From the NCBI GenBank assembly GCA_964387845.1, contig CAYLXA010000009.1:32001-96000 (forward strand): a stretch of 64,000 nucleotides of DNA, in the 5' to 3' direction. The position numbers and the translations under genes are program-made. The stretch comes from an uncultured bacterium (GTDB lineage: Bacteria; Omnitrophota; Omnitrophia; Omnitrophales; Abzuiibacteriaceae). This document shows, piece by piece, positions 5,751-64,000 of the stretch. The notes beneath the pieces are model-generated. The model was not told where the DNA came from. It ran no database searches and saw nothing but the letters and a program-made list of their open reading frames with translations. The first letter of the stretch is position 1, and every line of letters starts with the position of its first letter.

Positions 5751-5774
5751 TTTTAAATTAGCGTTAAGGCAAAG

Positions 5775-5840
5775 TTTTAAGTGATAAGTGGTAAGTGCTA
5801 AGTTGTTCGATTAACTTATCACTTACCATTTAAACCTTAC
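5775..5840. repeat. Heptamer-based palindromic intergenic element of the GTAAGTG family.
   Basis: ttttaagtgataagtggtaagtgctaagttg / aacttatcacttaccatttaaaccttac. Confidence 0.75.
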
Positions 5841-5845
5841 GCCTT

Positions 5846-6967: not shown

Positions 6968-6977
6968 ATTTTCCAGT

Positions 6978-7057
6978 CATAAGTGGTAAGTGATAAGTTG
7001 TAAGTAGGAAAAATAACTTACCGTTTCTCACTTAGCACTTACAACTTACCACTTAAA
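6978..7057. repeat. Heptamer-based palindromic intergenic element of the GTAAGTG family.
   Basis: cataagtggtaagtgataagttgtaagtagg / aacttaccgtttctcacttagcacttacaacttaccacttaaaac. Confidence 0.75.
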
Positions 7058-7063
7058 ACTAAA

Positions 7064-7645: not shown

Positions 7646-7650
7646 AGTGT

Positions 7651-7712
7651 TAAGCGGTAAGTTGTAAGTGGTAAGAAAAAACTTATCCCTTACCACCTAT
7701 CACTTAGCACTT
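7651..7712. repeat. Heptamer-based palindromic intergenic element of the GTAAGTG family.
   Basis: taagcggtaagttgtaagtggtaag / cttatcccttaccacctatcacttagcactt. Confidence 0.75.
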
Positions 7713-7714
7713 CT

Positions 7715-8743
7715 TTAAATTAATCTCTCAATCGAATCCGTCAAACGACGCGCCACATGATCCACAAGCGAAATAACTTTCGCATACGGCATGCGCGTCG
7801 GCCCTAAAATTCCCACGGTTCCCAGCAATTGGTTTTGGCAATGGTACGGCGCAAACACGAGTGTACAATCGCGGATTTCCTGAGGCAAATTTTCCTTGCC
7901 GATTCTCACTCGGATTTCACCGGCACGCAGCGGCTCGTTAATCGCCGATCTCAAAGTTTCCTTGGTTTCCAGGACTCTTGAGAGCAAGCGCGCTTTTTCG
8001 GATGCCTGGAATTCCGGCTGGCGCAAAATAAACCTGGATCCGTCGAGCGCTAATTTCCGCTCCTCTTCAATCACAAGCGCACGCTCTGCGATTTGAAGCG
8101 CGATGCGGTACAAAATCGCGGCGGAATCACGAACTTTGAGCAATCGCTCGCTTAAAAACTCCGGAATTTCGCTGAATTTTTTTCCCGAAAGCTCGGAATT
8201 CAGAAAATGATTAAGCCGCGCGACTTCCTCCATCGGAATTTCTTCTTCCATGTCGACCATTTTGTTCTGCACAAATCCGGACGTGGAAGCCCACATCACG
8301 AGCAAATGCGAACGGCCGTACGGAATTAATTCGATCTGTTTGAGAACAAGTTCGTTGAAATCCGGAAACAAAACCCAGCCGGCTTGCTCGGTCATCGATG
8401 ACAACACGCGCGCCGTGCGCTCAACCAGCTCTTCGATGCTTTTCGCCTTTTGGCGATATTCCCACGCAATCAGCGACGTTTCAGCAGCCTGGACGGATTT
8501 TTCTTTGATGAGAGCGTCGACATAAAAACGATACCCCGAATCGGTCGGAACGCGGCCGGCTGAAGTATGCGGATGATTGATGAAGCCAAGTGACTCAAGC
8601 TCCGACATTTCGTTGCGGATGGTCGCAGAGGAAATATCCGTGCTGAAATGTTCCGACACCACTTTTGAGCCCACAGGTTCTGTGGTTTTGGTGTAGAAAT
8701 CTACAATAATGGCTAAAATCTCTTTTTGACGCTCTGATAGCAT
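7715..8743 (-). CDS. hrcA: Heat-inducible transcription repressor HrcA.
   Basis: N-terminal winged helix (MLSERQKEILAIIVDFYTKTTEPVGSKVVSE), full-length HrcA similarity, CIRCE immediately upstream, classic hrcA-grpE-dnaJ order. Confidence 0.9.
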   Translation of the reverse strand: MLSERQKEILAIIVDFYTKTTEPVGSKVVSEHFSTDISSATIRNEMSELESLGFINHPHTSAGRVPTDSGYRFYVDALIKEKSVQAAETSLIAWEYRQKAKSIEELVERTARVLSSMTEQAGWVLFPDFNELVLKQIELIPYGRSHLLVMWASTSGFVQNKMVDMEEEIPMEEVARLNHFLNSELSGKKFSEIPEFLSERLLKVRDSAAILYRIALQIAERALVIEEERKLALDGSRFILRQPEFQASEKARLLSRVLETKETLRSAINEPLRAGEIRVRIGKENLPQEIRDCTLVFAPYHCQNQLLGTVGILGPTRMPYAKVISLVDHVARRLTDSIERLI

Positions 8744-18741: not shown

Positions 18742-18747
18742 GTTTTT

Positions 18748-18810
18748 AGTGATAAGTGATAAGTGGTAAGTGGTAAGCAACTTAAAACTTACCACTTACA
18801 ACTTACGACT
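18748..18810. repeat. Heptamer-based palindromic intergenic element of the GTAAGTG family, between the 5718-aa and 3270-aa genes.
   Basis: tagtgataagtgataagtggtaagtggtaag / acttaccacttacaacttacgact. Confidence 0.75.
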
Positions 18811-42200: not shown

Positions 42201-45200
42201 CCGTCTAAGCCCGGTTTTGCCATTAAAATGCGGACGGGCACTTTGCTTTCGATTTTCCGGATCGGCGCTTGCCGGCTCGTTTTAGACGGAAATACGCTCT
42301 TTTTAAAATCACCAAATACGCCGCGCACGGCATCCATCATTTCACCGACGGTTGCTTCCGCGAGCGCGGCTTTAATAAAGTAAGGCATCACATTTTCATT
42401 CTCTTCAGCTGCTTTTGTAATCTCGGCCAAGGCTTTCCGTACTTTTTCATTGTCGCGTGTTTGTTTCAGTTTTTCTAAATTACCCAAAACTTCGGCGCGG
42501 CGTTCCTCGTAAGATCCCATCCGCTCACGCAGCATTTCTTCGGTAATGTCAACTTTTTCCGCTTTTTCTTCCCTTACCCCTTGCCCCTTGCCCTTTAATC
42601 CTTGTTTGGTGAGTCTTTCTTCCCGCAGCATTCCTTTTTTGGTCACTTCATCCTGAATGGCGTCGCGCATGTACTGCTCGACCGCTTCCTGGCCTTCGGT
42701 TTCATTTAATTGAATCAAAAATTGAATCAGCGCCGCGGCTTGATTGATAATTTCATCCGTGTATTTTTCAAGCAAATAACTGCCGCCGTTCGGATCCACT
42801 TGCTTGTCTGCGATTTGCTTTAAAATTTCATGGCTTCTCAGCGCGACTTTTGCGGCATGTTCGGATGGCAGGCGCCTGTTCTCATCGTAACTATCCAAAT
42901 GAAGCGTTTGCGTGCCGCCGTCAACCGCAACCAGGCCTTCCGCCAAAATGCGGGCGATATTGGCCGGCTCATCCACCCCTTCCGGATCTCCTTTTAAAGG
43001 AACGCCTGAAGTCTGTGTGTGTACCCGGAACATCAGCGCTTTATTTTTATTTTCATCGCGTGCTTTCAAAATATGGCGGGCAATAATAGCCCACAGTTCG
43101 CGCGCAGCGCGGAACTTGGCGGTTTCGTAGGTTTTGGTTTCGCCGGTTTCGTCCATCAAAAGCGAATCAAAGAAAAATGAAAATTGCTCGAGCACCTGAT
43201 TCACGGTCACTTGGCTTCCCGGGCGCTGATTTTTGAAGAAATTCTGCGCATACAAAATCGCGTTCATCAGCGTAAACGCAACTTCCTGAACGGCCGATGA
43301 GCCGGCTTCGCGCATGTGATAACCGCTGATTGAAATCGTGTTGAACCTCGAACCTGCGAAATACTCGAACATATCGTTTGCGAGACGCATGGAGCCCTTC
43401 GCTGAAATACCGTAATTGTTGCGCGTGGTTCTTTCTTTGTTGTTGTCGTTTTGGACAGTGCCGCGGAGTGTTTTCTTGGCGAGTTCGATTGCTTCGGCTT
43501 CTGACAAACTGCTGTCTTTCTGCATGAGCCGTTTCGTGCCGAGTGCGATATACATCGCCAAAATCGGCCCTGCGGATGCGTTGATCGTCATCGAAGTGGA
43601 AACTTCGCCGTCTGTGATGTCGATTCCGTCAAAAATGGTTTCCATGTCGCGGATCGAATCGACCGGTGCGCCCTCGGTTCCGATGTTGTAAATCGCGCGC
43701 GGGTCATCGGAATCAATGCCGACTTGCGTCGCGTTCTGAAACGCCAGACTGAATGCTTTGAATCCTCTTTCTAAAAACAGGCGGAATCTTTCGTTGGTTT
43801 CACGTGCCGTGCTGTAACCCGCATACTGCCGCGGCGTGACAGATTTGTAAGTCGCAAATGCGCCCCGGCGGAACGGATATTGGCCCGGCACCTGAACGGC
43901 CGGTACATCGCCGAAATCAAAAATGCGCGGCACCGGCTGCGCTTCGTTGGGGTCTAAAAGCCCGATGCTGTAGATCGATTCGCCGCGCTCACGGAGGAAC
44001 TTGGACATTTCATGATCGGGATCCTCGGGTTCAATGAATTCAATAACACCTAGGTTTTCCGGCAGTTCCAAGACCGCTATTTTTAGTTTTGCATCTTTAT
44101 CTTCATATATAGGAAGGCCGAATGACGCCGCGCTGGAAACAGGAATCATGATGCTGACGCGTTCTTTGGCAATACTTTTTAACCTGTCGTCCTGAAGCCA
44201 GCTCTCCCTGGCTTTCTGAATCATGGGCTCCGCAATTTTTGAAATTTCTCCGGCAATCACCTTTTGATGGTGTGTCTCCCGGAGGATTTGCACCAAATAC
44301 GGAACCGATTGCTGAACGGTGATAAGCTCTTTCTCGGCAAGTTTTCTTTTAGTGGTCGGTTTTGTTTTTTGATTCAAATGAGCCAAATGCGCCGATATCC
44401 GGAGTAAAAGTTCTGAAAATCCTTTTTGTTTTTCGCCGGTTGAAACGGTTTGAACCGCAAGCGGCTGCCATCCGTCTTCACGCGCAGGCTGTGTTGAAAG
44501 ACCGGCTTCGAGGTCGTGAATGGCGACAAACGCGCGTTCCGTGTCCGCCTGGTTTAATACCGCAATATCGGGCGTTTCCATGGAACCTGCTTTCATGGTC
44601 TGAATTTCACCCAGATAAGCGGGACTTAAAGTCAAAAGAAGCGTGTCGGAAACTTTCCTGATTTCATCCTGAGTTTGGCCGGCGCCTTCGGTTTCGATCA
44701 AAACAACATCCACGCCCATGTGGTCCATTAATTTGGCAACTTCATCCGTCGTTTTGGCAATGCCGCCTTGGCCGTCGCGCAAACTGACGCTTCGGATCAT
44801 GACGCCCGTGTCATCCGCCAAATTACCCATGCGGTACCGGTCTACGAGAAATGCCCCGCCCGAAGAGTCTGATGACGGGTCTACGCTGACGATTCCAACC
44901 CGAAGACCCGTTCGCCTGATTTCGCCGGCAAGGTTTGCGATAAATGAACTTTTACCGACTCCGGGCGGCCCCGTGATTCCGATCCGGTAAGAATTGCGCG
45001 GCAGTTTTTGAATTTCAGAAACAACAACCGGCCGGATTTCTTCACCGGTACTTTCCATAAAAGTCATGAGCCGCGCAGCGGCGCGATGATCGCCTTGCTT
45101 GACCAAATTTAACAACTGACGGGTTTCCCACCAGATCAGCGGCATTGTGATACCGGATTTTCCGGAAGCGGCAATAACCCTTCTTTTAGCCGAAAACTTT

Positions 45201-48200
45201 TCGAGATAATCCGCTAAATTTTTCTCATCCAAAATCCTGCCGGCAGGTTTATTTTCAAAAACCTGATAAATTACATCACCGTCAGATTGGCCGCCATAAA
45301 CAACAACTGCGCGGTCTTTCAAACTCGAAACTTCATGCGCAAGGAGGCCCTTCAGCTGCATGTCTTCTTCTGATTGGGGATCCAAATACACGATATCCGC
45401 ATCTTCATCAATCGCGGCGCGCGCGATATGACGCGCTGCTTCCGGATTTTCCGATGTTTCCCGGACATAAATCACTTCGAAACCCTTTGAGCGGAAAAAC
45501 TCCGCGGCAGCTAATGAACGATTTTTATCTCCAAGTTCCACGACCAGCGCGCGCCCTTTCGCCAATTTAAATTCCGAAGCAGGGCCCGCTGCCGGCTTGG
45601 AATGTACTTTTAAAAATTCTCCGTGCCGGCTGACGGCATCAATGAGTTCCGAAATTCCTTTGCCTTCGCCCTCAATCGCGACCGTTTCAATCACAGGCGG
45701 CATCCATTCGTCTTTCGCTTGAGGTTTTTGGAAAACGCGCTTTGCAATTTCCGCCGTTTCGCGGGCACCTTTTCGGTCGGCTTTATTGACAACCAGCACA
45801 TCCGCAACGGTCAAGTAGCTGTCCTTGCTGAGCGTTAAAATATCGCCTGACTCGGGCGGAATCGCAGCCACCATGGTATCCGTAATTTTCCGGATTTCTT
45901 TTTGGGATTGGCCGACACCTTCGGTTTCGATGAAAACAAAATCCTTTGGAGTTCCGGAATCAACTCCGTAAATATCAAACACTTTTGCGACTTGTTCGGT
46001 TGTTTTTGCAATGCCGCCAACGCCGCCGCGCGTCGCCATGCTCCTGTAAAATACATTTTCATCCGTCAGCAGTTCGCGGGAAAGCCGCATTCTGTCCGCC
46101 AAAATTGCGCCGCCCGTAACGGGGCTTGTGGGATCAATCGCGATCGCCGCAATGCGTTTTCCCTGCCGCCTGTATTGTACGATCATGTCTTCGACCAGCG
46201 TGCTTTTGCCCACACCGACCGCGCCTGTGACGCCGATTCGGCGCGGTTTTTGCTCGATATGAATGGCGTCCAATTTTTGATGAATCAATTCCGCAACTTC
46301 ACCGCCGTTTTCAATGAATGAAATCAACTCACCGGCTGCATGGTCATCGCCCGCGCGGACTTTTGAAATGAGCGTATCCACTTCGGCGTTTCGAAGTTCG
46401 GAACGCGAAGTCAAGGTTTGTGCCGCCAACCGGGCAAGCTTTTGGCTGTCCTCGCGGCGGCCACGTGACCCGACCCAAACCGCGATTCCGACCGGAATCA
46501 TAACAAAAAACATTGAAGTTCCAAGCGCATAAAACAGGCCGATTACTTTTTTCTGGAACAAAAAGTCTTCGTATGCATCCCCTAAGATTAGCTGCTGAAG
46601 ATTTTCACCGTTTGCAAATAGAAATTCGGGCCTTTCGCTCAACACGGTATCGCGAAGGCGCATGACGTCCATGCTCGCATCATTGCGGACGATTAAATAA
46701 GCGAAGTCGCGCCCGTCTGTTCCTGCTTGGATATCAATGCGGATAATTTTGTCGTTGATGTCCGGTAAAGATTTAATGCTCGAAAAGGAAAGGGCTTCTT
46801 TTATCCTGTCCTGCAAATACGCATTGTTGCCGAATTTTCCGCCCAATTGATCGTTGATCACAATCGGCAAGTCGGTACCTTTCGCTTCTTTAAGCGCACG
46901 CTCGGCGGCGCGGACCGGATCCATATACCAAAAATAGGCCGCACTTGAGATCGGAAGCACAACAACCATCGCGATGAGGAACGACAGCAGTTTGTGCTTC
47001 GAAATCCAGCGCGGATATTGGCGGTACCAAACTCTCTGCTTTTTATCGATTCTATGAACCTTGCGCAGATAATCGAGAACCTTCGCCTCAAATAAAGAAT
47101 ATTTCTTCGGTAAATTTAGGTCAGTTGGCTGAGTTTGATCAGTCACCTTGCTTGTAACGTAACCGCTTGGTTTCAGAAAACCTTTTTCCCTAAGGTGGTT
47201 ATAAATTTTCTCGGATTCCGTTTCGTTAAGCCAGGTTAAAGTGGGGCCATCGGACAAATAGGTAATTGCCGATCGGCTGGCGGCATCATCGTTATCCGGC
47301 GTTAGGTTGGCAAAATCACCGGCATGAACTCTTGCCCGCAGCTCTGAGCGCGAAGAATCTGCTTCTTTGTTCCTCGGTTTTGGTTTTAAAGAACTGACGA
47401 TACTTAGAGTTTCCAGTTCCTTCATGACATTGACGGTAAAAATAACGGAAACAGCGACTGTGATCATGGCGCCCGCAGTTAAAAGAGTAGGCACAGCAAT
47501 CCACCAAGGCAATATTTGACCATCTAAAAGCGGATTCTTGGACTTGTCTCCCGTTCTCAACTCCGACCTGGCTTCCCTTTGAAGGAAAGTCGTTAAGCTC
47601 ATCATAGCGGGCAGGCCCGATTCAGGCTTCGGAAATGGTTTAGCATCCCTCGTACGCACACCGGAAAGAGCCGCAATTAAGCGATACTCGGTATAAGGCA
47701 TGATGGTTTGTGAAATCCAATGGGTGCCCCAATAAGCGGAGGCCGGCACTTGAGCGGCTTTGTTAACTGCCGTCACCGGATCATCTGAAGACAAGAAAAC
47801 ATCAGGGTCGGCGGTATGAAGTTCAAGCAAAATTAAGCCGTGATTAATATATTTTTCCCAGCGCTGGAAAAATTTGATAAGGTCGGCCGCCGCTACAACC
47901 GCGGGCACTAATTTTCCTTTATCAGAATAGGAAGTCCTGAATCGTGTAGCGATTAACTCGCTCAAGTCATCAAGATTTTCAGGCAAGGGCTGTATGTTAA
48001 GAATGCTCTGAAGAAGCGCTCTGTCTGTTTTCAAGACAGCTTCTTTAAGAATCTCTCTTGCTTCGTCTATACTTTTAATTTTCAGCTTTCTTTCGTGAGG
48101 CAAAACCATCTGCATATGCAGAAGATCCCGGGCGCCGACCGGGCGGTTCATCCGCAATTCGCGGTCATAAATAACCATACGCCTGTCCGCCATGCTCTTC

Positions 48201-49771
48201 TTAATTGCTTCGTCATACTCTTCCGGGTTTGTAACATCGCCGAACAACACATCCGTGACGATACCTTCGGTATTTTCAAATGCTTTTAACGTGTTTGCTT
48301 CTCTTAGGCGGGATTTTTCGTTGTAGTCAGCAGCAATTACAACCAACGGATGTTCCTTGAGATGTTTGCCGCGCAAAGTGTTCTGAATAATGTGATCGAC
48401 TGTTAATTTTAAAAGATGCCCGTCGCCTGCGCCCATATCCGCAATTCCGGCAGGCTGGGCTTCAATAGGCGCGTTAAAAATCCGGTCAACCCGCGCAATA
48501 ATATCTTGGATATAAGCTTTATGCGCAAAGCTGCTGCCCCAGATATCCATCACGCGGTCAATGTGGCCGTCCCGGTCAATACCAAGCGGATCCGGATTTC
48601 CAAAAAGCATTTGGTCTAAAACTTTGTAGGATTTTAAATAGGATGTCGTAACGCCATAGCTGCCCACTTTCTTCATAAACGACAGCCCTTTGGGTGTGAG
48701 GCGGACTAGATGACGCTGATGCGGCTGCCGCTCGGCCAGACTATGTATTGCCAACAGGTCGAATGCTGCGTCTATAAAACCGCGCTGAAAGCTTTCGGAA
48801 ATGAGCCCAATATCAAAACTATTGTTTTGAGCTTCTAATTGATTAAAGATTGATTCTCCGACTTGGACAATTTCGCCGTCAACATCGCGATAAACAGGCA
48901 TACCGAGCGCCACCATCGTTGCGCTCATGATGATACCGTCGATTTGAGTCCGTACTTCCTCAATTACCCTGCCCACTACCCTTGAATCATGGTGCCTGAA
49001 TATAGGACTGGATGAGCTTGGCAAACTCCATCCACGCGCACTTTGTTCAACCAATGCCTTATACTGCTTAAGTTCCACGTAGCGCCCGTCTTGGCTTGGT
49101 TGATGAAAATATTCATGAAGCCTTACAACGTCCGCGATTCCTTTAACCGGTGTTTCTAAATAGCCGGCATTTGCAAGCAATGCCGCAATCTGCCCTTTTT
49201 CCGTTAGTGAAAAAACGGTCTGCTGGTCAATGCCCCACATCCTAACCCACCCCTGCAGGGCAAGCGTCCGCATCGCTCCGTAAATGTTGCCTGCATTAAA
49301 TTTTTCTCCATACGATGCAAACCTTGACTCTAAACTGGCTAAACTTAAGGATTCAGGCTGTGTCCAAGACCCGAATTGATAGAAAACACCCGCTTTAGAT
49401 AAATAATGAAGTATGGGAATTGTCATAAGGCCGTTAATGTGCTGGAAGATCAGCGACCGAACTTCGCTTTCGGATACAGGGCCGATATTGGATCTTAATT
49501 CCGACCTGGGATTAAAAAGCGTTTTGACAAACTGGACGGTGATATCCGCGAGCGAATGCTGCTCTAAGATTTTTTCTTCCGGAAGATCAAGTTCTTTTCT
49601 GAGTTCGGAACGGAATGCGGGCACCATATCCGCCGATTCCGGACGCAGCGTAGAATTATATTTCAGCGCCGAGGTCAGGTAAGGAATGTCGGAATAAGCG
49701 ATAGAACTTGTAAATGAAAACGAAACTACAAGCAGTGCAGAAATTAACTTAAGAAAATAATTTTGTTTCAT
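36245..49771 (-). CDS. Giant polyprotein-like gene of about 4508 aa. Modules in order: leader, O-methyltransferase-like module, transmembrane segments, two MeaB/ArgK-type GTPases, methylmalonyl-CoA mutase catalytic and B12-binding domains, a SAM methyltransferase, biotin carboxylase, carboxyltransferase beta then alpha, a P-loop kinase, and the conserved C-terminal domain. Eight exact RSELR motifs plus the KSELR variant. The start is moved to the ATG at 49769..49771.
   Basis: Stop-free frame of 13.5 kb. Leader: [30 protein letters not shown]. The track's GTG start at 49786 would overlap the upstream stop and translates a repeat remnant. Confidence 0.8.
   Translation of the reverse strand: [4508 protein letters not shown]
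36880..37560 (-). other. P-loop kinase module, uridine-kinase/PRK-like.
   Basis: [17 protein letters not shown]. Flanked by RSELR on both sides. Confidence 0.45.
37620..39330 (-). other. Acyl-CoA carboxylase carboxyltransferase beta module, then the alpha module.
   Basis: Beta: [16 protein letters not shown] zinc finger and GGARILEG. Alpha: [25 protein letters not shown] and [13 protein letters not shown]. Confidence 0.7.
39500..40790 (-). other. Biotin carboxylase (ATP-grasp) module.
   Basis: [32 protein letters not shown]. Starts directly after [13 protein letters not shown]. Confidence 0.7.
40830..41830 (-). other. SAM-dependent methyltransferase module.
   Basis: [15 protein letters not shown] motif I. 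Preceded by the KSELR variant. Confidence 0.5.
41850..43950 (-). other. Methylmalonyl-CoA mutase catalytic barrel followed by its B12-binding domain.
   Basis: [18 protein letters not shown] and [14 protein letters not shown]. B12 domain: [32 protein letters not shown]. Confidence 0.7.
44100..45150 (-). other. MeaB/ArgK-type GTPase module 2.
   Basis: [16 protein letters not shown] and [21 protein letters not shown]. Confidence 0.65.
45500..46400 (-). other. MeaB/ArgK-type GTPase module 1 (methylmalonyl-CoA mutase chaperone family).
   Basis: [16 protein letters not shown] P-loop and [20 protein letters not shown]. Confidence 0.65.
47950..49450 (-). other. Class I SAM-dependent O-methyltransferase-like module.
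   Basis: [11 protein letters not shown] SAM-binding motif with an upstream dimerisation-like region. Coordinates are approximate. Confidence 0.5.
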
Positions 49772-49772
49772 C

Positions 49773-51347
49773 TTATCCCTTACCACTGCTTTCGTCAGAT
49801 TCCCCTTTAATGTACCAGCGGCCGTTTTCCCATTTTTCCGTGAGCATGCGGCGGTAAAGTTCGGGGCCTTGGCTGAGGCCGACAGTCGGCGCGATTACGA
49901 CAACGTTAAAGCCAATCCGGTTCAGTTTTCGGATAAGGCGTTCTTTATGGAAACCGCCCGCGATTAAAACGGATTCGGGTTCCCGGTCAGCTTTGATTTT
50001 CTCCGTGAGATTTTCCACGAGCGCCTGGTCGCGCATGTTGGCGATGCGGTAAAAAGATTGAAATTCATCGAGTGTTTCATCCAGTTTCGCCAAATTAGAC
50101 GGTAACGAAATATTTTTTCCCTGCCCGCCGGCCTGCGCATTGAGAAAATTTTTCCATCCTGCGATTTTGAAGCGGTCGCGCTCGTCCATGAAAACCTGAT
50201 ACTGCTCAGGGACGAGCTCCAATTTGACAAGCGATTCCAGAATCACGAGATCGTTTGACATCCGGTAAACCCGCTTCCCTTCCGGTGTTTCCAAAAATGC
50301 GTCTGCAATACGGTCTGTGAGCTTTGCTTTTTCATCGAAAAACGCGAGCGAATCAATCTGATCCTGCTTCCTCAAATACGGAATAGCGCCTTTGACGGAC
50401 GGATACTTATTGGTATCGATCGAATTTTTTTCGGCAAGTTCGATTAATTTTTCGTAAAAATCGGCGCGCTTATTGGCGTCTTTCTCAACGCCGTGTTCCG
50501 TATCCAAAACCGCGCGCAGTTCTTTGGCATCGACGCGGCGCTGCATCTCACGGACCAATTGTGTGCGCTCGTAATCGACTTTTTCGAAATCGGCGGTAGA
50601 TTCCAATTTAATCAAACTGGAAAGCACTTCGACGTTCGGATAATCCGAAATCGAGATATTTTTCTTAGCGGCGAACTGAAAAAGAAGTTTGGCTTCCTGG
50701 TGCAGGTTGTGTTTGGCTGTAAAATCCTCAAGCTGGGTTTCAAATTCTAAAAATTCCTTCGGATAGAGACCGGGCTTGACGGCATTCACCGCAATCCTGA
50801 CCTGTTTGAGCTGGTCTAGCATGTTCTGCATGAGCGGCTCAACTTTGGTAAATGCAATCAGGTTTTCGTCATACAAAACCTGGCTTTCGATTCCCCACAA
50901 GAGCAACGGATAGTCTTCCGTGAAGTTTAAATATTCTTCTCCCGAAATTTTGCCTTCGCGCATCAGTTTGGTGCCGATTTCAACGCGTTTCTCCTTAGGG
51001 CCCACGCGGTATTCCGACAAACTCACATCGCCGATTCCGCCTTCGACCAAAACAAGCCGGATGTCGCGCGCTTTGTGGAGCGACTCGATGATTTTTGCCA
51101 TCGCTTTTTGAGCTTCAAAATTAACGTGTGCGTCTAGGATATAAAAGATATTGAAAGGCTTTGAGCCCGGATGGTATTCCGAAATGCGGCCGGTTTCTTC
51201 GGGAATCTTAATCTGCGCGATATCGGCAGGAAGCGACACTTTGGAGCTTGCTGAGTAAAGTTCAGGGGCGCCTAAAAAACTCAGGGAAGCTATCAGAGCT
51301 AGGCAAATTGCGGTTGTGCGAAAACGTGGAGTGAAAACCATATGCAA
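49773..51347 (-). CDS. TraB/GumN/Tiki-like putative hydrolase or protease with an N-terminal signal peptide. It is paralogous to the N-terminal domain of the truncated giant gene at 1..4211.
   Basis: ILDAHVNFEAQKAM...LVLVEGG and VLIAGGFHKERLIRKL correspond to IQDAHSELGAQENIQ...LYLEGG and VLVTGGFHEEGLKEL in the other gene. It has no RSELR motif. Confidence 0.6.
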   Translation of the reverse strand: MHMVFTPRFRTTAICLALIASLSFLGAPELYSASSKVSLPADIAQIKIPEETGRISEYHPGSKPFNIFYILDAHVNFEAQKAMAKIIESLHKARDIRLVLVEGGIGDVSLSEYRVGPKEKRVEIGTKLMREGKISGEEYLNFTEDYPLLLWGIESQVLYDENLIAFTKVEPLMQNMLDQLKQVRIAVNAVKPGLYPKEFLEFETQLEDFTAKHNLHQEAKLLFQFAAKKNISISDYPNVEVLSSLIKLESTADFEKVDYERTQLVREMQRRVDAKELRAVLDTEHGVEKDANKRADFYEKLIELAEKNSIDTNKYPSVKGAIPYLRKQDQIDSLAFFDEKAKLTDRIADAFLETPEGKRVYRMSNDLVILESLVKLELVPEQYQVFMDERDRFKIAGWKNFLNAQAGGQGKNISLPSNLAKLDETLDEFQSFYRIANMRDQALVENLTEKIKADREPESVLIAGGFHKERLIRKLNRIGFNVVVIAPTVGLSQGPELYRRMLTEKWENGRWYIKGESDESSGKG

Positions 51348-51385: not shown

Positions 51386-54300
51386 TTACGCCGAACGGAG
51401 CGTCCGCAATTCGCTGCGAAGCTGAATACTCAATTGCTCAACAATATCCCGGATGCCGAGCGCCCGATAAAGCGCGCTGACATCTTCGCGCGACACATAC
51501 TCGACAAGACTTTTGTAACGTTCGCCGAGACGCTCAAAAAATGCTTTTTCGCGCTTAGAAGCAAGAATGCGTGTTTTATTAGCACCTTTTTCGATTAATT
51601 GCCGGCGCGCATCCGGATAACTTCTTGAAAATACCACATGATCGATTGAAATACCCTGAAGCACGTCCCGGATAGCGGCTTCACCGGTGCTGTCAACCAC
51701 AAATGCAATCCGGTCGACCTTCGGAACGATAAAACGAAGCGCCCACAAAAGCTCCTGGCCCTTTTCCGTTCTTTCGCTTTCGGCCAGCACAAGATCTTGA
51801 GTCAAAATCGTGCCAAGAACTTGATCGGATTGAGAAGGCGCAAAATAATCAAAGAAACGGATGGTGCTCGTGGGGTCATCATAATTGGGAAACCGCAGGT
51901 TTTCAACCGCTGCGTAGACAAACCCGCCAAGCTCTGTGCGCGCATTCCGATCAACCATATCGCCGAGCGTCGCAAAATCATCAACAACAGCACTTGATGC
52001 CCTCAATTCAGATCGAATGCCGGATTTTTCACTGGTTGCGGCCAATTGAGATTCCGCGGATGGCCCTACGTTCCTCCGAACCACAATCTTTGAAATTAAA
52101 TCCCTAATTCCGGAATCTGTTCTTTGATACGTACTCAAATTCGGTAATTTCAAACCTAAAGCCCCGGACAAACTTTTGAGCGTCGGGTGCTTAATTTTAC
52201 CTTGAACCATTGATTGGAGCGCGACGCGAAGTCTGTCCCTTGTGGGGGCTGGTTTAGTTTCCATTTGGTCTTTCGAATTTCTGAGCGAACCTTCAGTGAC
52301 AGCCCATTGTATGACTGCTTCAATAGCGGGATCGGACTTCCGATAGTTAACTAAAGTATCATAGGCGACATCCGCCTCAGCCGCTAACTCAGTTAAAGTT
52401 GTTTGCAGCCTACCTTCTTGGCCTAAGCGTTTCACCGTATCCAATATTCTGTCGCGGACAGACATCTTCGGAGTTTCTGTTTCTTCGCGCAACTCGGAAC
52501 GGCCGGATTGTCGCGATCGGAAAGCCCGGATTCCTTCCATGAGCTGAGTGCCGGTGACAGCTATCGCTTCACTTGCACCGGAGCCACCCTGAATTTCTCG
52601 CTCAACATCTTTTATCTCCAGTGTATCAATGAACGCTGGGACCGTCTGATTATCAATATTCGATCCCGATGATTTCACATAATCGGCAAACAAACGGTCG
52701 ATAGCAGAATTCACTTGGTCAGGAGTTGCCTCTGTCGCCCTTAATTCACTGCGCGGCTCCTGAATCCCGTCTGTATCAGAATCAGCCTGGCCGCTTTGCT
52801 CGGCTGTTTGAGCAACCGTAACGAAGTAGAAGGTCCCGCGTTTTGAAACACGGGCGCTTGGCACTGCGCCGGCTTCGGCTTGTTTCGGCATTGTTAGATT
52901 GATTCGGTTTATCAGCCACTCCAAAGTAAGAAGATTGGAAACACGCTGATCTCCGTCACGATAGAGTTCGGCAATCAAGTAAGTTTGCCCCTCCACTTTC
53001 TCGGAAATTGCAATTTTGTAAGAATAAGGCTCGATCAGAAAAACACGCTGCTTTCTGCCCACATACTTGATTGCAATATGAAATGGGCCGCTTAATTCAA
53101 CTGCTTTCCGGCCAAGTTTAAAATCAGATCTTTGCTTCGACAATTTAATAGGAACAACCCACAGCGCCGCCCAAAGGCCGGCTCCCAGCGCTGCGAAGCC
53201 GTACTGAGAAACAATATAAAAAAAGTCACTCGCGATGCTGACCGAACCTCCCAAATTATTTCTGAGCTCTGAACGCGAGGCAACTACCTCTGCATCTTCG
53301 GGGCCTAGATAAATTGTGTTTAAAATATCCTCGGGAATCAAAGCAACAATTTGTTTTGCAATAACGGCCGGAGCCCGAATGGCTGCCGATAAAGTAAAAT
53401 TCGATATTTCAATGATCAGCGTTTCGTTGGCAATATCAAATTTAAAATTGACTATATCTTCATCTGGATCGGGATGTAATTTGATCTCAATGCGCGGAAG
53501 TATATCGAGATTACGGTGTGCACGGCCAAAAGCTGATATTAAATGTGAACGCAAATACTCTTGCGGAGTCACTTTCGCCTCTTTTGAAGCTGCTGAAGAG
53601 AAAGGTGTATTTGTCCGGTTTGCGAATGCCGAAAATCCTCGCTTGATTACTAAAGTGACTAACGAAATGACACCAGCGAATAAACCGCCGGCAATATATT
53701 GAGAACCGGCATACACCAAATCAGAATATTCGGATGCACGAAGTTCGGATTTCTCGGCGCTGCCGGCTTGCGTTTCCAATTCGGCAAGTAACTTTTCGGC
53801 TTCCCTATCAGCTTCGGCGCTCTTTTTAAAAAGCGACAGGAAGAGATATATGAGAAAAGTAGAAATAAAACTGACACCGATTGCTACCTGCATCGGCTTT
53901 GAAGGGTCATGCGAAAGCCATTTGGTTAGCTGGTAAACAACAAACCCCGAAATAGCAGACGCGCCGGCAGAAATCGCCAACCTTACCAGTGAATTACGTA
54001 GTTCGGAACGGTGAGCATCATCCGAACTGGATTTTGGAGTTGAATTTTGATCTTTAATTTCACGAACAAAAAGTCGGAAGAAAATGCTCAACAGTACATT
54101 ACCAATCCACAATCTGAATTTACGGGTTGAACTTTGGTCTGTGACTGAACTGCCTGCTACCGCGGCACTCATAAGGTCAAATTCATCGTCATTGTCATTG
54201 GCAACCTGAGATCCGCTCGTTTGATTTGTCGCTTGTGGTTTTAAACGCCAATACGCAAGAAGCGTCAAGCCAATAATCGTTCCCACCACAATTAACCCAA

Positions 54301-57300
54301 CCCAACCTGCAGCGGCTCCTGTCAGAATTTTTAACGGCAGGTTCAATTCCGACCACGCGCTGCGTAGTTCGGAACGATGAGTAGTAACGGGGACGGTAGA
54401 CCCCACAACGCCAAGAAGATCGAAACGTGCGCTGCTGTCCACGCGCTGGTCTGCTTTTGTGATTAAATCAAAAAGAGACTGCAAAGCTTGTTTCTGATTT
54501 TCGTCGCGGACTTGCGCAAAAGCAAGCTGCAAAGCAGCTTCGGCATGGCTAAGCTGGCCTTTATTGAAAATCACGGCGGCCTGACGGACTAAAGATTCTA
54601 AATCGACAATTTCCGTAGGAAGCGGGGCAAATGGAAGCGATTCAAAAAATTTCCGGCTCTCACGGTCAGCAAAAGCTTGAGGCGTAATGCCTTCCGCTTT
54701 GGCGCTTTGCAAAATAACTCTCGTGCGGTGTTGGATTAAAGCCGCGATAGAACTATCGGAAGAATCATGCCCCAAATGGCCGTCAACTCCGGTGACGCCA
54801 CCGGCATTGGAAATATAATCCGGAACCGGTGTAATGCCCGCTGCTTTCAGCTCTTCCGCATCTTTCACCTTATCATAAAGCACATTATTCGTAGACCCGA
54901 CAACGCCCTTTACTCCGGCAAACATTAACTCTTTTGCAGCATCCGCATTAATCACAGGCCCTCGGGCTGCCGGCACAAAAATATCGACATGATCAACGCC
55001 CAGCCGGTTAAAATCATCTTTGAAATGCTTTGCCGGATTAAAAATCTTGGTTGTATAACCGCCGCCGGTTTTCGGTTCTTCCAAAAAGTGAAAGAAACGG
55101 TTTTGGTCAGCGTAAGTTTTAAGCGCCGGATGATCTTCGAAAAGTTTATCGATCCTTCCCTGGCTTACATCCGAAGCGATGACAACGCCGCCTTCATCCA
55201 AAATGGGCTGAATGACTTCGCTGCCGACACCACCCACGCCTTGAACTGTGAAAACTTTTCCCGCGATTTCGGGATTATCGGGAAAAATTTCTGATAATAA
55301 ACCTTTTAATGAAGCAATGATCCCAACGCCGGTCGGATGAGTCGGGACTTTGCTGTTTCCGGTTTCATCCGAATAAGGCACGATTGAAGTCGGCGCAAAT
55401 TTAAACAGCAGTTCGGCGTCCCGGACCGAAATATTCATGTCTTGTCCCGTTAAAACACCGCCGCCGATTAAATTTCCTATTTTCTCAACTGCTTTAGCGT
55501 AACTTTCAAGAATCGCATCGCGTTCGGGAGACTGAACCGCCGGATTAACCTTGTGGCTTCGGATAGCCGATTTGGAGCCGCCGATTTTTAAACCATTAAT
55601 ACCGGCACCTGCATTTTTAAAACTCATTTCCTGAGAAAGTTCAAGAGCATCAATCAACGCATCGACATCGCTTTGATAGCTCAAAATTCGCGTGCCGCCG
55701 GTAGCGCGCCACTGCCCGTTTAGGACACGGCCTTTGCTCTGAATTTGGGTAAGCCGGTGAATGGCAACATAAGCGGTATAACCCAAGATCGGGTTGTCAA
55801 TTTGAAATACGGCGTAATGCCGGTCCCAATGCTCACGGATCTGATCGACTGCTTCCGGAAAAGCCGCCATGAAATCACTCAAATTGCGCAATGCGTGGAT
55901 TTCGGTGCCATCCGGCATCACCATTCCGTCAAGGCGCTTTGGGTCCAACCGGTTGGCTTCGATATCGTATAAACGCAAATCGGCCACAACAGCTTTGGCC
56001 TGCCCCACAACCGATTCGCCCTGCGAATGATAAAGCCCGATTTCAATCCGCTCAAAAATGCCGATTAACTGTTCAAAGGATTCCGCGAGAGATAAAAGTG
56101 TTTGCGCAGTGGGCGTACCGACAATATTAAATTTTTTTCTGGTTGAAAAATCTCTTAATACGGCAGCGAAACTCTGAAACTGGAAATTTAAGATTTGGAC
56201 AGTCTTAAGATTGATTAATCCTGCATCAAGTACAACTTGAATATCGGTTTTGATTTTATTAAAAATCGGAGCGCGCACAACATCGCCCGCTACATCTCTT
56301 TCACTTTGTGTTGCCGCCGTTTCTTCCAGTTTCTGCGAACTGCTCTGAATTAACTGGACGCTTTCCAAAATAAGCCCCAGAACTTCACGAACATCCTTCT
56401 GCCGCAGCTCGGACTTTGCCAAATGGCTTGGCAAAGCCGAAGCAGTCCCGCGCAGTTCAGCGCGGGGCAGCTCGGCCGTTGATTTCGCCTCGGAGCGGGA
56501 AAGTTCTTCGAGAATAGAATCGGGTTGATTTGGATCGAGTATTTCCTTTAATTTTGCCAAAGCGATACTTCTATCTGAAAAATCTTTAACAGCCTGTATC
56601 AATTCTGACAGCGCCTTGCCTGTAGGACTCGTCGGCGCTTCAGCACGAGTCCGATGTTTGTCATAGCGTAGCGAATCTACTAAAAGAAACGCTTCGTGGG
56701 CTTTGCCGTGAAGCTGCTTCCACCGATGGTATGTATTGGGCATATTTCGTTGGAAGCCTGCTAAATCTGACTCCAGTTGCTCAAATATTGATTGGGCTTG
56801 AATAAGGCTGCTGTGAATAAATCTTATATCCTTTTCGGTTTGATGAAATTCCGGAGCGCTTGGGTTGATCATGACCAAGACAGGAGGAAATTTTTGTTTC
56901 ACTTTCTGAACCATAGGAATAAGTTGAGTTAAAATTTCTTCAAGAGTCGCGCGCAGCTCGGAGCGCGAATTCTTGAAAGCGTTGTTTCGGACGCCGGATT
57001 GATACTTGAAAGAGGTGTAAACATAAGTAATCGCAGCACCAATAAGCCCTGCGCCTACGCCGATCAGAATATACAGCGGCGTTGATTCAATGCCGTATCC
57101 AATACCGAGGATCGGAACGCTTACCGCGCCGGCGATGCCACCTGTAAAAAGACCGATAACCACGGAGTGAAGCACGCGCTCCCCTCGTGACATGTCTTTC
57201 AAAATACTGAATGACCTCGCCCGCAGCTCGGACTTTGCCAAATGGCTTGGCAAAACCGAAGCAGCCCCGCGCAGTTCAGCGCGGGGCAGCTCGGCCCTGT

Positions 57301-59173
57301 GAAGACGCTCCGTATCCACAGGTCTCTCGAGTTGTGGTTCCGAAGGAACTTTACGAACCTCGGAACGGCTATGCAATAATGGTAGTTTCGACAAAGGCGT
57401 ACCTGCATTGCTATCGAGAAACTCTTGAACGAGCTTAGAAACTGTTTCCGCTTTTGCGTTTTCTGCTTTAACAGTAATAAGCCATGTTGGATAACTATCC
57501 GCCCAAATAAACTGAAGGTCTTGATATTTCAAAAACCGTCGTGTTCCATAATAAGAATCGATAATTTCAACACCATTTTCATTTTGAGAAACAACCACGC
57601 CTTGAATGTCGTCACTCTCCTTAATTTTTGCGTGCAGAAAATACCAATAACCCTTTACTCCAGGCTTATTATTCCCAAGATGAAAATGCATCCGATCCCA
57701 AAGATTCATCCAATCCTGGATACCTTCCACAACTTCAATAATTTCAATTTTCTTAGCTTTCTGTTTGGACTGCCGCAGCTCGGAGCGGGGCTTTTCGCCG
57801 TCACGCAGACGTGAATGCCGGGCTTGAGTAATGTGCGGCGTATCGTCTTCCACGGGCTCTTGAATATCCTTAGGATCTGCGCCGTGGCGAAGCTTTTGAA
57901 GATACGTCAAGTCAGCGTCTGCCTGCGGCGGCGTTTGGTCATCTTCCGATGCGTGGCGTAATTCTGAACGTTGGTCAGTTTTAGGTTGCGGTGTTAATGT
58001 GGGCCACTCCTCCCAAACCCATTTCTTTCTCATACGTTCTTCCGCCGGATAATCAGTTGTACCAATCATGAAATGTGAGCCATGAGGAGAGAGCCAATAT
58101 TCATCCTCTGCACGGCCTTTACCAGAACTTACGGTCAGGACGAAATCTTGGTGTTCGCTAAGAATGGCGGTTACTTTTTCAACAAAAGCTTGTGTCGTGG
58201 CTTCATTCATTAAACGGTATCTCAAATTTGCTACTTCATCGTCAATGAAATCTTCAGAAGGCAATAAACCGCTTAAATTTAAATTTCTCACCTTCTCTTC
58301 AATGCTGTGAATAATTTGATTTTTTCTGATTTCACGCGCACTTAACACAGGAGCAGATTGATACGCCTTGCGCACCATGCGGTAATAAGTAATCGCAGCG
58401 CTAATAAGCCCTGTACCAACGCCGATCAAAACAGATGAGGCGGTCGATTTAATGTTGTATCCAGTGCCGAGAATCGGGACACTCAAAGAACCGACAATAC
58501 CTCCGACAAAAACACCGATGAGCAAGGTATTGGCAATAAGTTCTCCCCGCGACATACCCTTAAAAGCTCTTGCTCGCAATTCAGAACGGGATTCTGATCG
58601 AGTTTCGATTGAAATTTGAACTTGATCGGTAGAGGCAACTATCACGTTCTCAAGCGCAGGCTTTAAGTCAAAACGGATAACTAACCAATCCGTACTGACC
58701 GGAATGTTGCTTCCGTTGATTGAGATACCGGAAATACGGACATGGGACCAGGGGTCAAATTTGAGATGCAAACCGGTTTTTTGGCTGACGATATTTAAAA
58801 TATCCAAAACGATTGAAGAGAGTTTCTTAGTTCCAATGCGCTGATTGTAAGAATACGGTTCTCCGTTGATGGTAAAATTGATATTCGACAGAGCCCGTTC
58901 GGTTGATTGCTCCGGAAGTCGTAATTCTGATTTTTTACCAAAATCATCCTCCGGAATTTCCAGTTTTGCGGGGATTTCAATGCCTGCTTTACGAAGCTCA
59001 GAACGCACGTTTGAGAACCCAGTGTGCGCTTCCGGATTTGCCCGTATGTGATAAACTTCGGAATTTTTAAGCGCAACAGAAGACGCAAAATCCGTGTAAC
59101 CGACGGTACTAGTAAATGTAAAAGTGATGAGGAGTGTGAGCGAAATAATCTTCAAAAATGGCTTGCCGGACAT
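51386..59173 (-). CDS. Giant membrane-associated polyprotein-like gene of 2595 aa. It has a leader, a two-transmembrane hairpin module present twice, a Glu/Leu/Phe/Val-dehydrogenase-like module, and a TetR-like helix-turn-helix module. It carries the most RSELR motifs of any gene: 12 exact plus six variants (PRAELR, KSELR).
   Basis: Stop-free frame of 7.8 kb with an ATG at 59171..59173. Leader: MSGKPFLKIISLTLLITFTFTSTVGYTD. Confidence 0.8.
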   Translation of the reverse strand: MSGKPFLKIISLTLLITFTFTSTVGYTDFASSVALKNSEVYHIRANPEAHTGFSNVRSELRKAGIEIPAKLEIPEDDFGKKSELRLPEQSTERALSNINFTINGEPYSYNQRIGTKKLSSIVLDILNIVSQKTGLHLKFDPWSHVRISGISINGSNIPVSTDWLVIRFDLKPALENVIVASTDQVQISIETRSESRSELRARAFKGMSRGELIANTLLIGVFVGGIVGSLSVPILGTGYNIKSTASSVLIGVGTGLISAAITYYRMVRKAYQSAPVLSAREIRKNQIIHSIEEKVRNLNLSGLLPSEDFIDDEVANLRYRLMNEATTQAFVEKVTAILSEHQDFVLTVSSGKGRAEDEYWLSPHGSHFMIGTTDYPAEERMRKKWVWEEWPTLTPQPKTDQRSELRHASEDDQTPPQADADLTYLQKLRHGADPKDIQEPVEDDTPHITQARHSRLRDGEKPRSELRQSKQKAKKIEIIEVVEGIQDWMNLWDRMHFHLGNNKPGVKGYWYFLHAKIKESDDIQGVVVSQNENGVEIIDSYYGTRRFLKYQDLQFIWADSYPTWLITVKAENAKAETVSKLVQEFLDSNAGTPLSKLPLLHSRSEVRKVPSEPQLERPVDTERLHRAELPRAELRGAASVLPSHLAKSELRARSFSILKDMSRGERVLHSVVIGLFTGGIAGAVSVPILGIGYGIESTPLYILIGVGAGLIGAAITYVYTSFKYQSGVRNNAFKNSRSELRATLEEILTQLIPMVQKVKQKFPPVLVMINPSAPEFHQTEKDIRFIHSSLIQAQSIFEQLESDLAGFQRNMPNTYHRWKQLHGKAHEAFLLVDSLRYDKHRTRAEAPTSPTGKALSELIQAVKDFSDRSIALAKLKEILDPNQPDSILEELSRSEAKSTAELPRAELRGTASALPSHLAKSELRQKDVREVLGLILESVQLIQSSSQKLEETAATQSERDVAGDVVRAPIFNKIKTDIQVVLDAGLINLKTVQILNFQFQSFAAVLRDFSTRKKFNIVGTPTAQTLLSLAESFEQLIGIFERIEIGLYHSQGESVVGQAKAVVADLRLYDIEANRLDPKRLDGMVMPDGTEIHALRNLSDFMAAFPEAVDQIREHWDRHYAVFQIDNPILGYTAYVAIHRLTQIQSKGRVLNGQWRATGGTRILSYQSDVDALIDALELSQEMSFKNAGAGINGLKIGGSKSAIRSHKVNPAVQSPERDAILESYAKAVEKIGNLIGGGVLTGQDMNISVRDAELLFKFAPTSIVPYSDETGNSKVPTHPTGVGIIASLKGLLSEIFPDNPEIAGKVFTVQGVGGVGSEVIQPILDEGGVVIASDVSQGRIDKLFEDHPALKTYADQNRFFHFLEEPKTGGGYTTKIFNPAKHFKDDFNRLGVDHVDIFVPAARGPVINADAAKELMFAGVKGVVGSTNNVLYDKVKDAEELKAAGITPVPDYISNAGGVTGVDGHLGHDSSDSSIAALIQHRTRVILQSAKAEGITPQAFADRESRKFFESLPFAPLPTEIVDLESLVRQAAVIFNKGQLSHAEAALQLAFAQVRDENQKQALQSLFDLITKADQRVDSSARFDLLGVVGSTVPVTTHRSELRSAWSELNLPLKILTGAAAGWVGLIVVGTIIGLTLLAYWRLKPQATNQTSGSQVANDNDDEFDLMSAAVAGSSVTDQSSTRKFRLWIGNVLLSIFFRLFVREIKDQNSTPKSSSDDAHRSELRNSLVRLAISAGASAISGFVVYQLTKWLSHDPSKPMQVAIGVSFISTFLIYLFLSLFKKSAEADREAEKLLAELETQAGSAEKSELRASEYSDLVYAGSQYIAGGLFAGVISLVTLVIKRGFSAFANRTNTPFSSAASKEAKVTPQEYLRSHLISAFGRAHRNLDILPRIEIKLHPDPDEDIVNFKFDIANETLIIEISNFTLSAAIRAPAVIAKQIVALIPEDILNTIYLGPEDAEVVASRSELRNNLGGSVSIASDFFYIVSQYGFAALGAGLWAALWVVPIKLSKQRSDFKLGRKAVELSGPFHIAIKYVGRKQRVFLIEPYSYKIAISEKVEGQTYLIAELYRDGDQRVSNLLTLEWLINRINLTMPKQAEAGAVPSARVSKRGTFYFVTVAQTAEQSGQADSDTDGIQEPRSELRATEATPDQVNSAIDRLFADYVKSSGSNIDNQTVPAFIDTLEIKDVEREIQGGSGASEAIAVTGTQLMEGIRAFRSRQSGRSELREETETPKMSVRDRILDTVKRLGQEGRLQTTLTELAAEADVAYDTLVNYRKSDPAIEAVIQWAVTEGSLRNSKDQMETKPAPTRDRLRVALQSMVQGKIKHPTLKSLSGALGLKLPNLSTYQRTDSGIRDLISKIVVRRNVGPSAESQLAATSEKSGIRSELRASSAVVDDFATLGDMVDRNARTELGGFVYAAVENLRFPNYDDPTSTIRFFDYFAPSQSDQVLGTILTQDLVLAESERTEKGQELLWALRFIVPKVDRIAFVVDSTGEAAIRDVLQGISIDHVVFSRSYPDARRQLIEKGANKTRILASKREKAFFERLGERYKSLVEYVSREDVSALYRALGIRDIVEQLSIQLRSELRTLRSA
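52300..52480 (-). other. TetR-like helix-turn-helix segment embedded in the giant gene.
   Basis: RDRILDTVKRLGQEGRLQTTLTELAAEADVAYDTLVNYRKS resembles the TetR N-terminal helix-turn-helix. Confidence 0.4.
54750..55950 (-). other. Amino-acid (Glu/Leu/Phe/Val) dehydrogenase-like module.
   Basis: GGTRILSY, GLKIGGSKSAI and VQGVGGVGSEVIQPILDEGGVVIASD (Rossmann). Confidence 0.5.
56398..56480. repeat. About 80-bp in-frame element made of two perfect hairpins (ctttgccaa/ttggcaaag and ccccgcgc/gcgcgggg); copy 1 of 2.
   Basis: Near-identical to the copy at 57218..57296. Encodes PRAELRG(T)ASALPSHLAKSELR. Confidence 0.7.
57218..57296. repeat. About 80-bp in-frame double-hairpin element; copy 2 of 2.
   Basis: Direct repeat of the copy at 56398..56480, about 820 bp away. 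Confidence 0.7.
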
Positions 59174-63952: not shown

Positions 63953-64000
63953 CAAACTTAATTGGGGCAGCGAATCCCAAACCCAAACGGGAGCGTAAAC

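Follow-up and report, generated by a model that had tools for sequence, protein, structure and literature searches.

The members of the TIKI fold superfamily (Tiki/TraB/ChaN/Ere) have been described in very different functional contexts. Tiki1/2 and the enterococcal PrgY/TraB proteins act on short peptides or on secreted proteins, the latter at their N-terminal regions (PMC12329661, PMC7117660). The Ras/Rap1-specific endopeptidase of the MARTX toxin (RRSP) is a toxin effector domain that works independently of metal and cleaves a GTPase of the host; its cleavage of the peptide requires Glu-3900, His-3902, Glu-3930 and His-4030, and the catalytic pair of Bcr135 is His-85/Glu-113 (PMC6254334). 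The superfamily also includes proteins that are not peptidases (PMC6254334), i.e., the haem-binding lipoprotein ChaN and the Ere macrolide esterases, neither of which is fused to giant proteins. Here, we describe a gene found at positions 49773..51347 (minus strand) of a 64,000-nucleotide (nt) stretch of contig CAYLXA010000009.1 from an uncultured bacterium of the phylum Omnitrophota; the whole stretch is referred to as the window. The encoded protein is a strongly diverged TIKI fold protein whose catalytic set is intact, and it belongs to a family of domains that form the N-terminal head of long Omnitrophota proteins. This head is also a tentative candidate for the protease that matures the giant proteins encoded around it, at linkers marked by the pentapeptide RSELR.

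In giant proteins of this type the N-terminal regions were reported to "generally lack identifiable domains", except for a C39 or S8 peptidase domain near the signal peptide, and the cleavage points of the giants are unknown (West-Roberts et al. 2023). These C39 and S8 domains of other Omnitrophota giants share with the head discussed here the place by the signal peptide and the suspected cutting role (West-Roberts et al. 2023), but they differ from it in fold and catalytic type. Giants of the "multi-enzyme metabolic cluster" type, with signal peptides and membrane helices, are the subject of a 2026 preprint, in which neither the head domain nor linker motifs are mentioned. No description of the head domain was found in the literature on Omnitrophota giants, a literature search for Omnitrophota combined with polyproteins found nothing, and the only full-text match to RSELR in the literature was the software name varSelRF. 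An arrangement in which a protease heads a long multi-enzyme polypeptide, with short, lineage-specific site motifs between the functional units, is familiar from viral leader proteases. Here, in contrast, the organism is cellular, the units are metabolic enzymes and the products are targeted to the membrane; the likeness to viral polyproteins is a functional analogy and not homology.

All positions given below are those within the window, i.e., within the 64 kb of the genome that are visible, and every long open reading frame (ORF) of the window, as well as each gene and motif placed below, lies on the minus strand. The stand-alone head gene starts either at TTG 51347 (524 residues) or at ATG 51341 (522 residues), with a GGAGG box upstream, and ends with TAA at 49773-49775; the ATG is the start used by a 100%-identical database protein (P0001). 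The database proteins most similar to it are unnamed and come from Candidatus Omnitrophota/Omnitrophica. A first-pass annotation had regarded this ORF as a paralogue of the N-terminal part of a truncated gene at the left edge of the window, here called g0, and both the reality of the ORF and the relationship were confirmed: the protein aligns to the first 577 residues of g0 with a BLASTP E value of 1e-22 and 24% identity over 482 columns. In a frame scan g0 is open from 4279 down to base 2, i.e., it leaves the window, and TTG start candidates are found at 4237 and 4210. Its head domain (residues ~46-512; 2675..4075) is preceded by a signal-like leader (KKPNLLILKAISVFVLIAFTLNSTLAYAQG; 4097..4186), of the type common to the giant ORFs, and is fused to the truncated giant gene. 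The window thus displays both forms of the head, the fused one in g0 and the split one in the stand-alone gene.

The motifs that had been quoted from the two copies are present in both and coincide with invariant columns of a family alignment composed of the stand-alone protein, 41 homologues of 25-85% identity and g0 (43 sequences); they therefore make up its conserved core rather than resembling each other by chance. The first, ILDAH (residues 70-74; 51126..51140), harbors the first catalytic His, H74, preceded two positions earlier by an acidic residue, D72, and it is followed by VEGG (residues 101-104; 51036..51047) with the catalytic Glu, E102. The motif GIES (G152 and E154; 50883..50894) is found at a strand, residues 149-153 of the structural model, ahead of a helical insert. 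An invariant Arg in the motif MRD (R439; 50028..50036) precedes AGGFH (residues 463-467; 49947..49961), in which G464-G465-x-H467 is a GxxH-type motif with the second catalytic His. The corresponding motifs of g0 are IQDAH (79-83; 3962-3976), LEGG (110-113; 3872-3883) and TGGFH (472-476; 2783-2797). The columns invariant in all 43 sequences are H74, E102, G103, G152, E154, R439, G464, G465, H467, P487 and Y498, which include the His and Glu residues expected of the proposed hydrolase, and D72 is conserved in at least 90%. The distance of 28 residues between H74 and E102 recurs in 117 of the 150 best relatives, and R439, the conserved Arg expected in the helix ahead of the GxxH motif, is located 28 residues ahead of H467, compared with 24 residues between R228 and H252 of E. 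coli YbaP. Residues D72, H74, E102 and H467 are predicted to cluster in space on the basis of homology.

The AlphaFold model of the stand-alone protein (predicted local distance difference test score, pLDDT, 89.8) displays an alpha/beta core in which helices flank a central parallel sheet; the core is split into two halves by an all-helical insert of approximately 300 residues (156-454; 49986..50882). The nearest solved structures are members of the superfamily, and the same six Tiki-superfamily chains rank at the top for the models of both the stand-alone protein and g0. At the level of sequence profiles the relation is fainter. The AGGFH region of the protein matches the ChaN profile PF04187 with an E value of 0.0016 and 18.9 bits, i.e., under the gathering threshold of 27.7 bits; matches to this profile were found in 7 of the 43 members, the best of which (P0015; E 9.5e-6, 26.2 bits against the same cut-off) spans profile positions 41-203 of 213. 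For g0, a faint signal of DUF5694 was seen in the profile search. None of the 43 members matches PF01963 (TraB_PrgY_gumN), to which E. coli YbaP scores 150.8 bits, and a comparison of the head core profile with an alignment of the YbaP family using hhalign gave a probability of 2.5%, where the aligned part was confined to the strand with the conserved Glu. The family profile, either whole or restricted to the core without the insert, retrieved only noise from the PDB sequences, and an NCBIfam search yielded nothing for the head family. The assignment to a TraB/GumN/Tiki-like group in the first-pass annotation thus stands as regards the superfamily fold and the catalytic residues but not as regards the TraB/GumN label, for which the profile search was negative, with ChaN matched below threshold only. 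The head is a family of its own outside every Pfam and NCBIfam model. In the helical insert, weak matches to the paired-amphipathic-helix profile PF23202 were seen in 13 of the 43 members (best E 4.3e-6; for example, residues 264-310 of P0012); the stand-alone protein of the window has none.

When compared to the individual systems, D72-x-H74 matches E3900-x-H3902 of RRSP by position, and the spacing of 28 residues equals that between H3902 and E3930 as well as that between H85 and E113 of Bcr135. Unlike RRSP, the domain belongs, as an N-terminal head, to giants made by the bacterium itself; its first acidic residue is an Asp in place of Glu, and its helical part is inserted into the core. The appended lobe of RRSP recruits the substrate (PMC6254334), and an analogous role is proposed for the helical insert of the head. 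The likeness to Tiki1/2 and PrgY/TraB lies in the GxxH-type motifs and in an extracytoplasmic, membrane-tethered hydrolase domain, which in the present case is predicted. The putative anchor is, however, N-terminal here and C-terminal there, the 300-residue insert is new, the match is not significant, and the substrate proposed below is an attached or adjacent polyprotein. With the PF01963 proteins, exemplified by YbaP, the head shares the motif order strand-xxH, strand-E, R-[DN] and GxxH, whereas the 43 sequences score nothing on the profile. All matches to ChaN and to the Ere group (EreC and the Bcr135/136-like structures 2rad and 2qgm) remain under the gathering score.

A profile search over 1.84 billion representative proteins yielded 10,175 clusters with the head at E<=1e-3, 7,014 of them at E<=1e-30; practically all of these clusters are of Omnitrophota origin. 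In the best 150 of the 10,175 clusters, the domain always starts at residue 134 or earlier, a hydrophobic segment is found within the first 80 residues in 131, and the proteins are long: 112 comprise at least 800, 93 at least 1,500 and 38 at least 3,000 residues, with a maximum of 5,568. A scan of one genome per species identified at least 494 loci, nearly all labelled Omnitrophota and with two copies in several genomes; a metagenome scan for further close relatives gave three loci, two of which were already known. Among 83 genomic loci, there are 20 in which the domain heads a longer ORF to which it is fused and 63 in which it is encoded by a separate gene of 500-620 residues. Where at least 2.5 kb of downstream sequence was available, 40 of 50 separate copies have a same-strand ORF of 600 residues or more behind them, 33 of these within 120 nt; the upstream counterpart is 24 of 43. 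The called genes around P0002 (86% identical) and P0026 (31% identical) show that these relatives, too, reside between multi-enzyme giants. Members of the family accordingly head long Omnitrophota proteins at the N-terminus, where they come immediately after a signal-like leader.

The stand-alone gene of the window fits this pattern. A hydropathy scan located a hydrophobic helix at residues ~7-28 (51264..51329; a helix at residues 7-25 in the AlphaFold 2 (AF2) model), which, judged from sequence, fits a signal peptide or a membrane anchor. Downstream, the junction reads TAA-G-ATG (49769..49775), i.e., the stop codon is separated by 1 nt from the ATG that opens the leader of a 4513-residue giant ORF (MKQNYFLKLIS...), and this is the position at which the two are fused in frame in other genomes. 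A leader of the form K..(F/I)(L/I)K.IS..L...F.FT.S.AYS(D/E) is common to the giant ORFs that begin at 59173, 49786, 35973, 18795 and ~4210, the g0 version of this signal-peptide-like sequence ending in ...TLAYAQG, and the same type of leader is found ahead of Tiki-fold heads in other lineages (e.g., P0112, P0120 and P0124).

The six long ORFs of the window (19,014 residues) contain the exact sequence RSELR 50 times, where 0.034 occurrences are expected from composition; as noted in the first-pass annotation, the genes adjoining the head are rich in this motif. If K is allowed at position 1 or V at position 4, the number of sites is 56. The five positions are near-invariant and the flanks are not conserved; the next residue is mostly A, N, K or Q and never Pro. 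A DNA-level origin, such as a repeat or a recoding signal, was ruled out, as synonymous codons vary freely and all those for Arg, Ser and Leu are in use; selection thus acts on the peptide rather than on the DNA. The stand-alone head itself harbors no copy. In the five ORFs with Pfam annotation, none of 54 sites falls inside a Pfam envelope (joint P ~1e-7.5). Units bounded by the motif include an AprA-like methyltransferase, a MeaB-MeaB-mutase-B12 block, a biotin carboxylase with its carboxyltransferase, an ACP-like module and many small modules that bear membrane helices. In addition, a site is found behind each leader at about residue 60, the first RSELR follows the leader by about 25-35 residues, and sites are located 9-13 residues ahead of the stop codon in three giants. 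Some of the motif-bounded pieces are just 9-60 residues long.

The behavior of these units in evolution is seen from a comparison with the related locus L002. There, the methyltransferase block (between sites 94 and 740 in the window) adjoins the carboxylase block (sites 2989 to 4077); the two share an ORF, in which they lie between sites 466, 1105 and 2248, and the next ORF contains the mutase block. The BLAST alignments between the window and L002 both start and end within a few residues of motifs, and the order of the modules differs. The modules bounded by RSELR are therefore evolutionarily independent of each other, and probably functionally independent as well. Between the same two loci the head is 86% identical and the adjoining homologous enzyme modules are 43-53% identical; either the head is much more strongly constrained, or the modules compared are paralogous. 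The 1497- and 2595-residue ORFs of the window have no BLAST match in L002. In this closest relative (L001/L002, 11613-11969) a gene of the bAvd/23S_rRNA_IVP type (118 residues), i.e., for an accessory protein of diversity-generating retroelements, is found between the Tiki-fold gene and the next giant, and such a gene is absent from the window.

In a tree of 83 heads, RSELR-type sites adjoin only the orthologues of 63-86% identity to the stand-alone protein (L002, L005, L006 and L087). Other motifs were found elsewhere, i.e., x-DGG-[KNS] in L003, L030, L018, L023 and L016 (8-18 copies), R-TSP-[VLIA] in P0100 (9 copies) and T-DASGAAP in P0175 (about 10 copies). In the fused protein of L016 two DGG sites directly follow the head domain, and in g0 the first RSELR (residues 541-545; 2576..2590) follows after 29 residues. 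A single, universal linker motif was considered and rejected, as enriched tripeptides were seen in only a few clades among 84 loci and 82 long Tiki-headed proteins; past fused heads, the junctions of most clades contain no recurrent 4-mer. Since RSELR is limited to one clade, the function of the family cannot in general be RSELR cleavage. The tie between the head and giant multi-enzyme genes is thus tight, as anticipated in the first-pass annotation, but the tie to RSELR holds in the clade of the window only, and the gene is widespread in genomes without this motif, which formally counts against the idea of a dedicated RSELR enzyme as it was first put. A correlation with clade would also be expected of any gene that tracks the species tree; it permits a protease hypothesis but does not prove it. 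Specificity-determining positions were sought as well, and 12 columns are common to the RSELR-clade heads and g0 and rare elsewhere; these were given no weight, because this is about the number expected by chance. One of the 12 is residue 469 (49941-49943; residue 478 in g0), two positions past H467, which is Asp or Glu in the RSELR-clade heads and g0 and Pro in 26 of 36 others; judged from the sequence comparison, this residue might contact one of the arginines of the motif.

Taken together, we propose that the head is a putative peptidase that would mature the giant proteins at the membrane. In the clade of the window it would cut at exposed [R/K]-S-E-L-R sequences, most simply past the second Arg, which would release individual enzymes and membrane modules, while the variable helical insert may provide clade-specific recognition of the site (RSELR here; DGG, RTSP and TDASGAAP elsewhere). 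The proposal is consistent with the position of the head, which is fused to or encoded directly upstream of the putative polyprotein substrate, and with a recurrent site motif that is found at the module boundaries of the substrate and is absent from the head. No peptidase family was detected in any giant of the window (Pfam at E<=0.1), and the neighbor families listed for two inspected relatives include no peptidase except for an FtsH gene beside L001. The case is circumstantial, and we assign this role as a candidate maturation protease at RSELR linkers a probability of roughly 40%.

Several observations weigh against this proposal. The head and RSELR are linked by association only, the head family is far more widespread than the motif, and most Tiki-headed long proteins lack any enriched tripeptide. 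The surroundings of the active site are near-identical across clades with the unrelated motifs RSELR, DGG, RTSP and TDASGAAP, so that a single enzyme family would need a very plastic specificity. The AF2 model of g0 (residues 1-620) gives no confident placement of the RSELR segment, with pLDDT values below 50 at residues 516-533 and ~53-59 at the motif, and the model therefore says nothing about docking of the motif. Arginines ahead of the N-terminal helix predict that the catalytic domain is found outside the cytoplasmic membrane, and many RSELR sites lie beside enzymes dependent on ATP, CoA, NAD or B12 (as seen from hydropathy and Pfam); the 2026 preprint met the same topological puzzle for giants and, because the giants bear the same type of leader as the head, the objection is not decisive. 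The fold assignment is accompanied by sub-threshold profile evidence, the low hhalign probability for the TraB family and a Foldseek search against the PDB without a significant match (best E 0.087; EreC ranks second and has the highest probability of all), in which the long helical insert draws coiled-coil noise. With no Pfam model over threshold and empty profile searches of the PDB sequences, the resemblance to Tiki could be convergent or spurious; the head would then combine a helical bundle with a Rossmann-like alpha/beta module of other descent and serve the giants as a chaperone or structural anchor. We regard this as very improbable, as models of two paralogues that are 24% identical both rank the same six superfamily chains at the top, the invariant residues occupy the catalytic positions of the superfamily in the same order and with an identical His-Glu spacing, and one member covers most of the ChaN model at E 9.5e-6.

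Esterases (Ere) and a haem-binding protein (ChaN) belong to the superfamily as well, and a protease that cuts the giants at RSELR could be encoded beyond the 64 kb window, for example an Arg-specific serine or cysteine peptidase, or an enzyme of the C39 or S8 type as in other Omnitrophota giants; the head would then be employed otherwise, i.e., in ester or lipid hydrolysis, in trimming of the leader only, or in cofactor or haem handling as in ChaN. The occurrence of the head in many clades without RSELR, and mostly without a detectable motif, is readily accommodated by such a division of labor, as are the uniform active-site neighborhood, the non-peptidases of the superfamily (PMC6254334), the C39 domains reported in Omnitrophota giants (West-Roberts et al. 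2023) and the FtsH gene that adjoins the related cluster in L001. The window and the inspected flanks revealed no further peptidase domain, however, and the 2His/2Glu-type set that is required for peptide cleavage by RRSP is retained. In addition, the strict N-terminal placement and the stop-start coupling speak for a function of the head that is tied to the giant itself; on balance, a separate protease appears somewhat doubtful. In favor of a separate protease, the C39 peptidases have a Gly-Gly specificity, which the DGG motif of another clade fits. A different view is that the giants are not cut at all, in which case RSELR, DGG, RTSP and TDASGAAP would be linker, docking or sorting motifs within intact membrane-bound assemblies and the head would act on an external substrate, such as peptides or surface proteins of a host or prey cell, as in the Tiki-Wnt and PrgY-pheromone pairs. 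The known Tiki-family peptidases do work extracellularly on the N-termini of other proteins or on small peptides (PMC12329661, PMC7117660), an extracytoplasmic location is predicted for the head, a host-dependent or predatory way of life is assumed for Omnitrophota, whose giants have been discussed as surface effectors, and the motif-bounded pieces of 9-60 residues would be odd as released products. On the other hand, a strict pentapeptide with unconserved flanks, found between domains, past leaders, near C-termini and at cassette breakpoints, has the look of a protease site in a polyprotein. Furthermore, in related genomes the ORFs are split at or beside motifs, which indicates that the modules can function apart. 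We consider intact giants unlikely, and maturation by the head remains the reading that we prefer.

The remaining genes of the window place the head among the giants. At the far right, a 1497-residue ORF (59462..63955) is of the phosphoglucomutase type and contains 5 motifs, the first at residue 8. It is followed by a 2595-residue giant (51386..59173), which combines a Glu/Leu dehydrogenase with many small modules bearing membrane helices and contains 17 motifs, the last one 9 residues ahead of the stop. Past the stand-alone head gene, the 4513-residue giant (36245..49786), the putative substrate, carries 9 [RK]SELR sequences, all between Pfam domains; its modules are an AprA-like methyltransferase, two MeaB domains with methylmalonyl-CoA mutase and a B12 domain, a methyltransferase, biotin carboxylase with carboxyltransferase and a kinase-like module. 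The 5718-residue giant (18817..35973; 8 motifs) comprises 3-hydroxyacyl-CoA dehydrogenase, mutase, AMP-binding, HpcH, MaoC and acyl-CoA dehydrogenase domains, and the 3288-residue giant (8929..18795; 15-17 motifs) an ACP-like module, PEPCK, triosephosphate isomerase and others. In the latter two ORFs some enzymes are joined without an intervening motif, i.e., PEPCK with triosephosphate isomerase (8929-18795) and HpcH with MaoC and acyl-CoA dehydrogenase (18817-35973). The giant cluster is separated from g0 by the ordinary-sized housekeeping genes hrcA, grpE, dnaJ and gpsA (4398..8743).

Two further features of these genes were observed. The C-terminal tail of the giant ORFs is conserved: those ending at 51386, 36245, 18817, 8929 and 59462 read ...R-(A/S)-A or ...AA (tails LRSA, TRAA, GRAA, SMAA and LSRA), and tails in the relatives L002, L006 and L087 are LSAA, LQSA, VQAA and ILRAA. 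Alanine-rich C-termini are recognized by tail-specific and Clp proteases in other bacteria. Within the region of g0 that encodes the helical insert of the head, a 7-nt unit (GTATCTN) and its reverse complement are repeated in four short arrays, which make up two inverted pairs (2913-2981 and 3264-3406). The arrays are limited to this region (8 matches where 0 are expected); they are read in frame as SYLVSS and (P)DTRYQI(P) and leave the ORF unbroken.

Papers on giant bacterial proteins have not settled whether these are cut, where, and by what, and the prediction of proteases together with the motifs they recognize has been named as a difficulty (PMC11573180). The locus described here offers both a candidate site, i.e., a strict pentapeptide at module boundaries, and a candidate enzyme, i.e., a hydrolase head found in more than 10,000 clusters, and it supplies RSELR candidate peptides for the head (PAFRSELRKELD and TGSRSELRAAKS). 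In the broadest and rather speculative picture, central metabolism of Omnitrophota would be organized largely as membrane-targeted polyproteins, in which a TIKI-fold head cuts clade-specific linkers and the modules are shuffled as cassettes. We consider the identity of the head and the motif-bounded cassette structure to be a more interesting outcome than the protease role. Even if the head is not a protease, the unannotated N-terminus of a large class of long Omnitrophota proteins is now recognized as a TIKI-fold domain, and the motif-bounded cassettes allow rational splitting of the giants for structure prediction and annotation.

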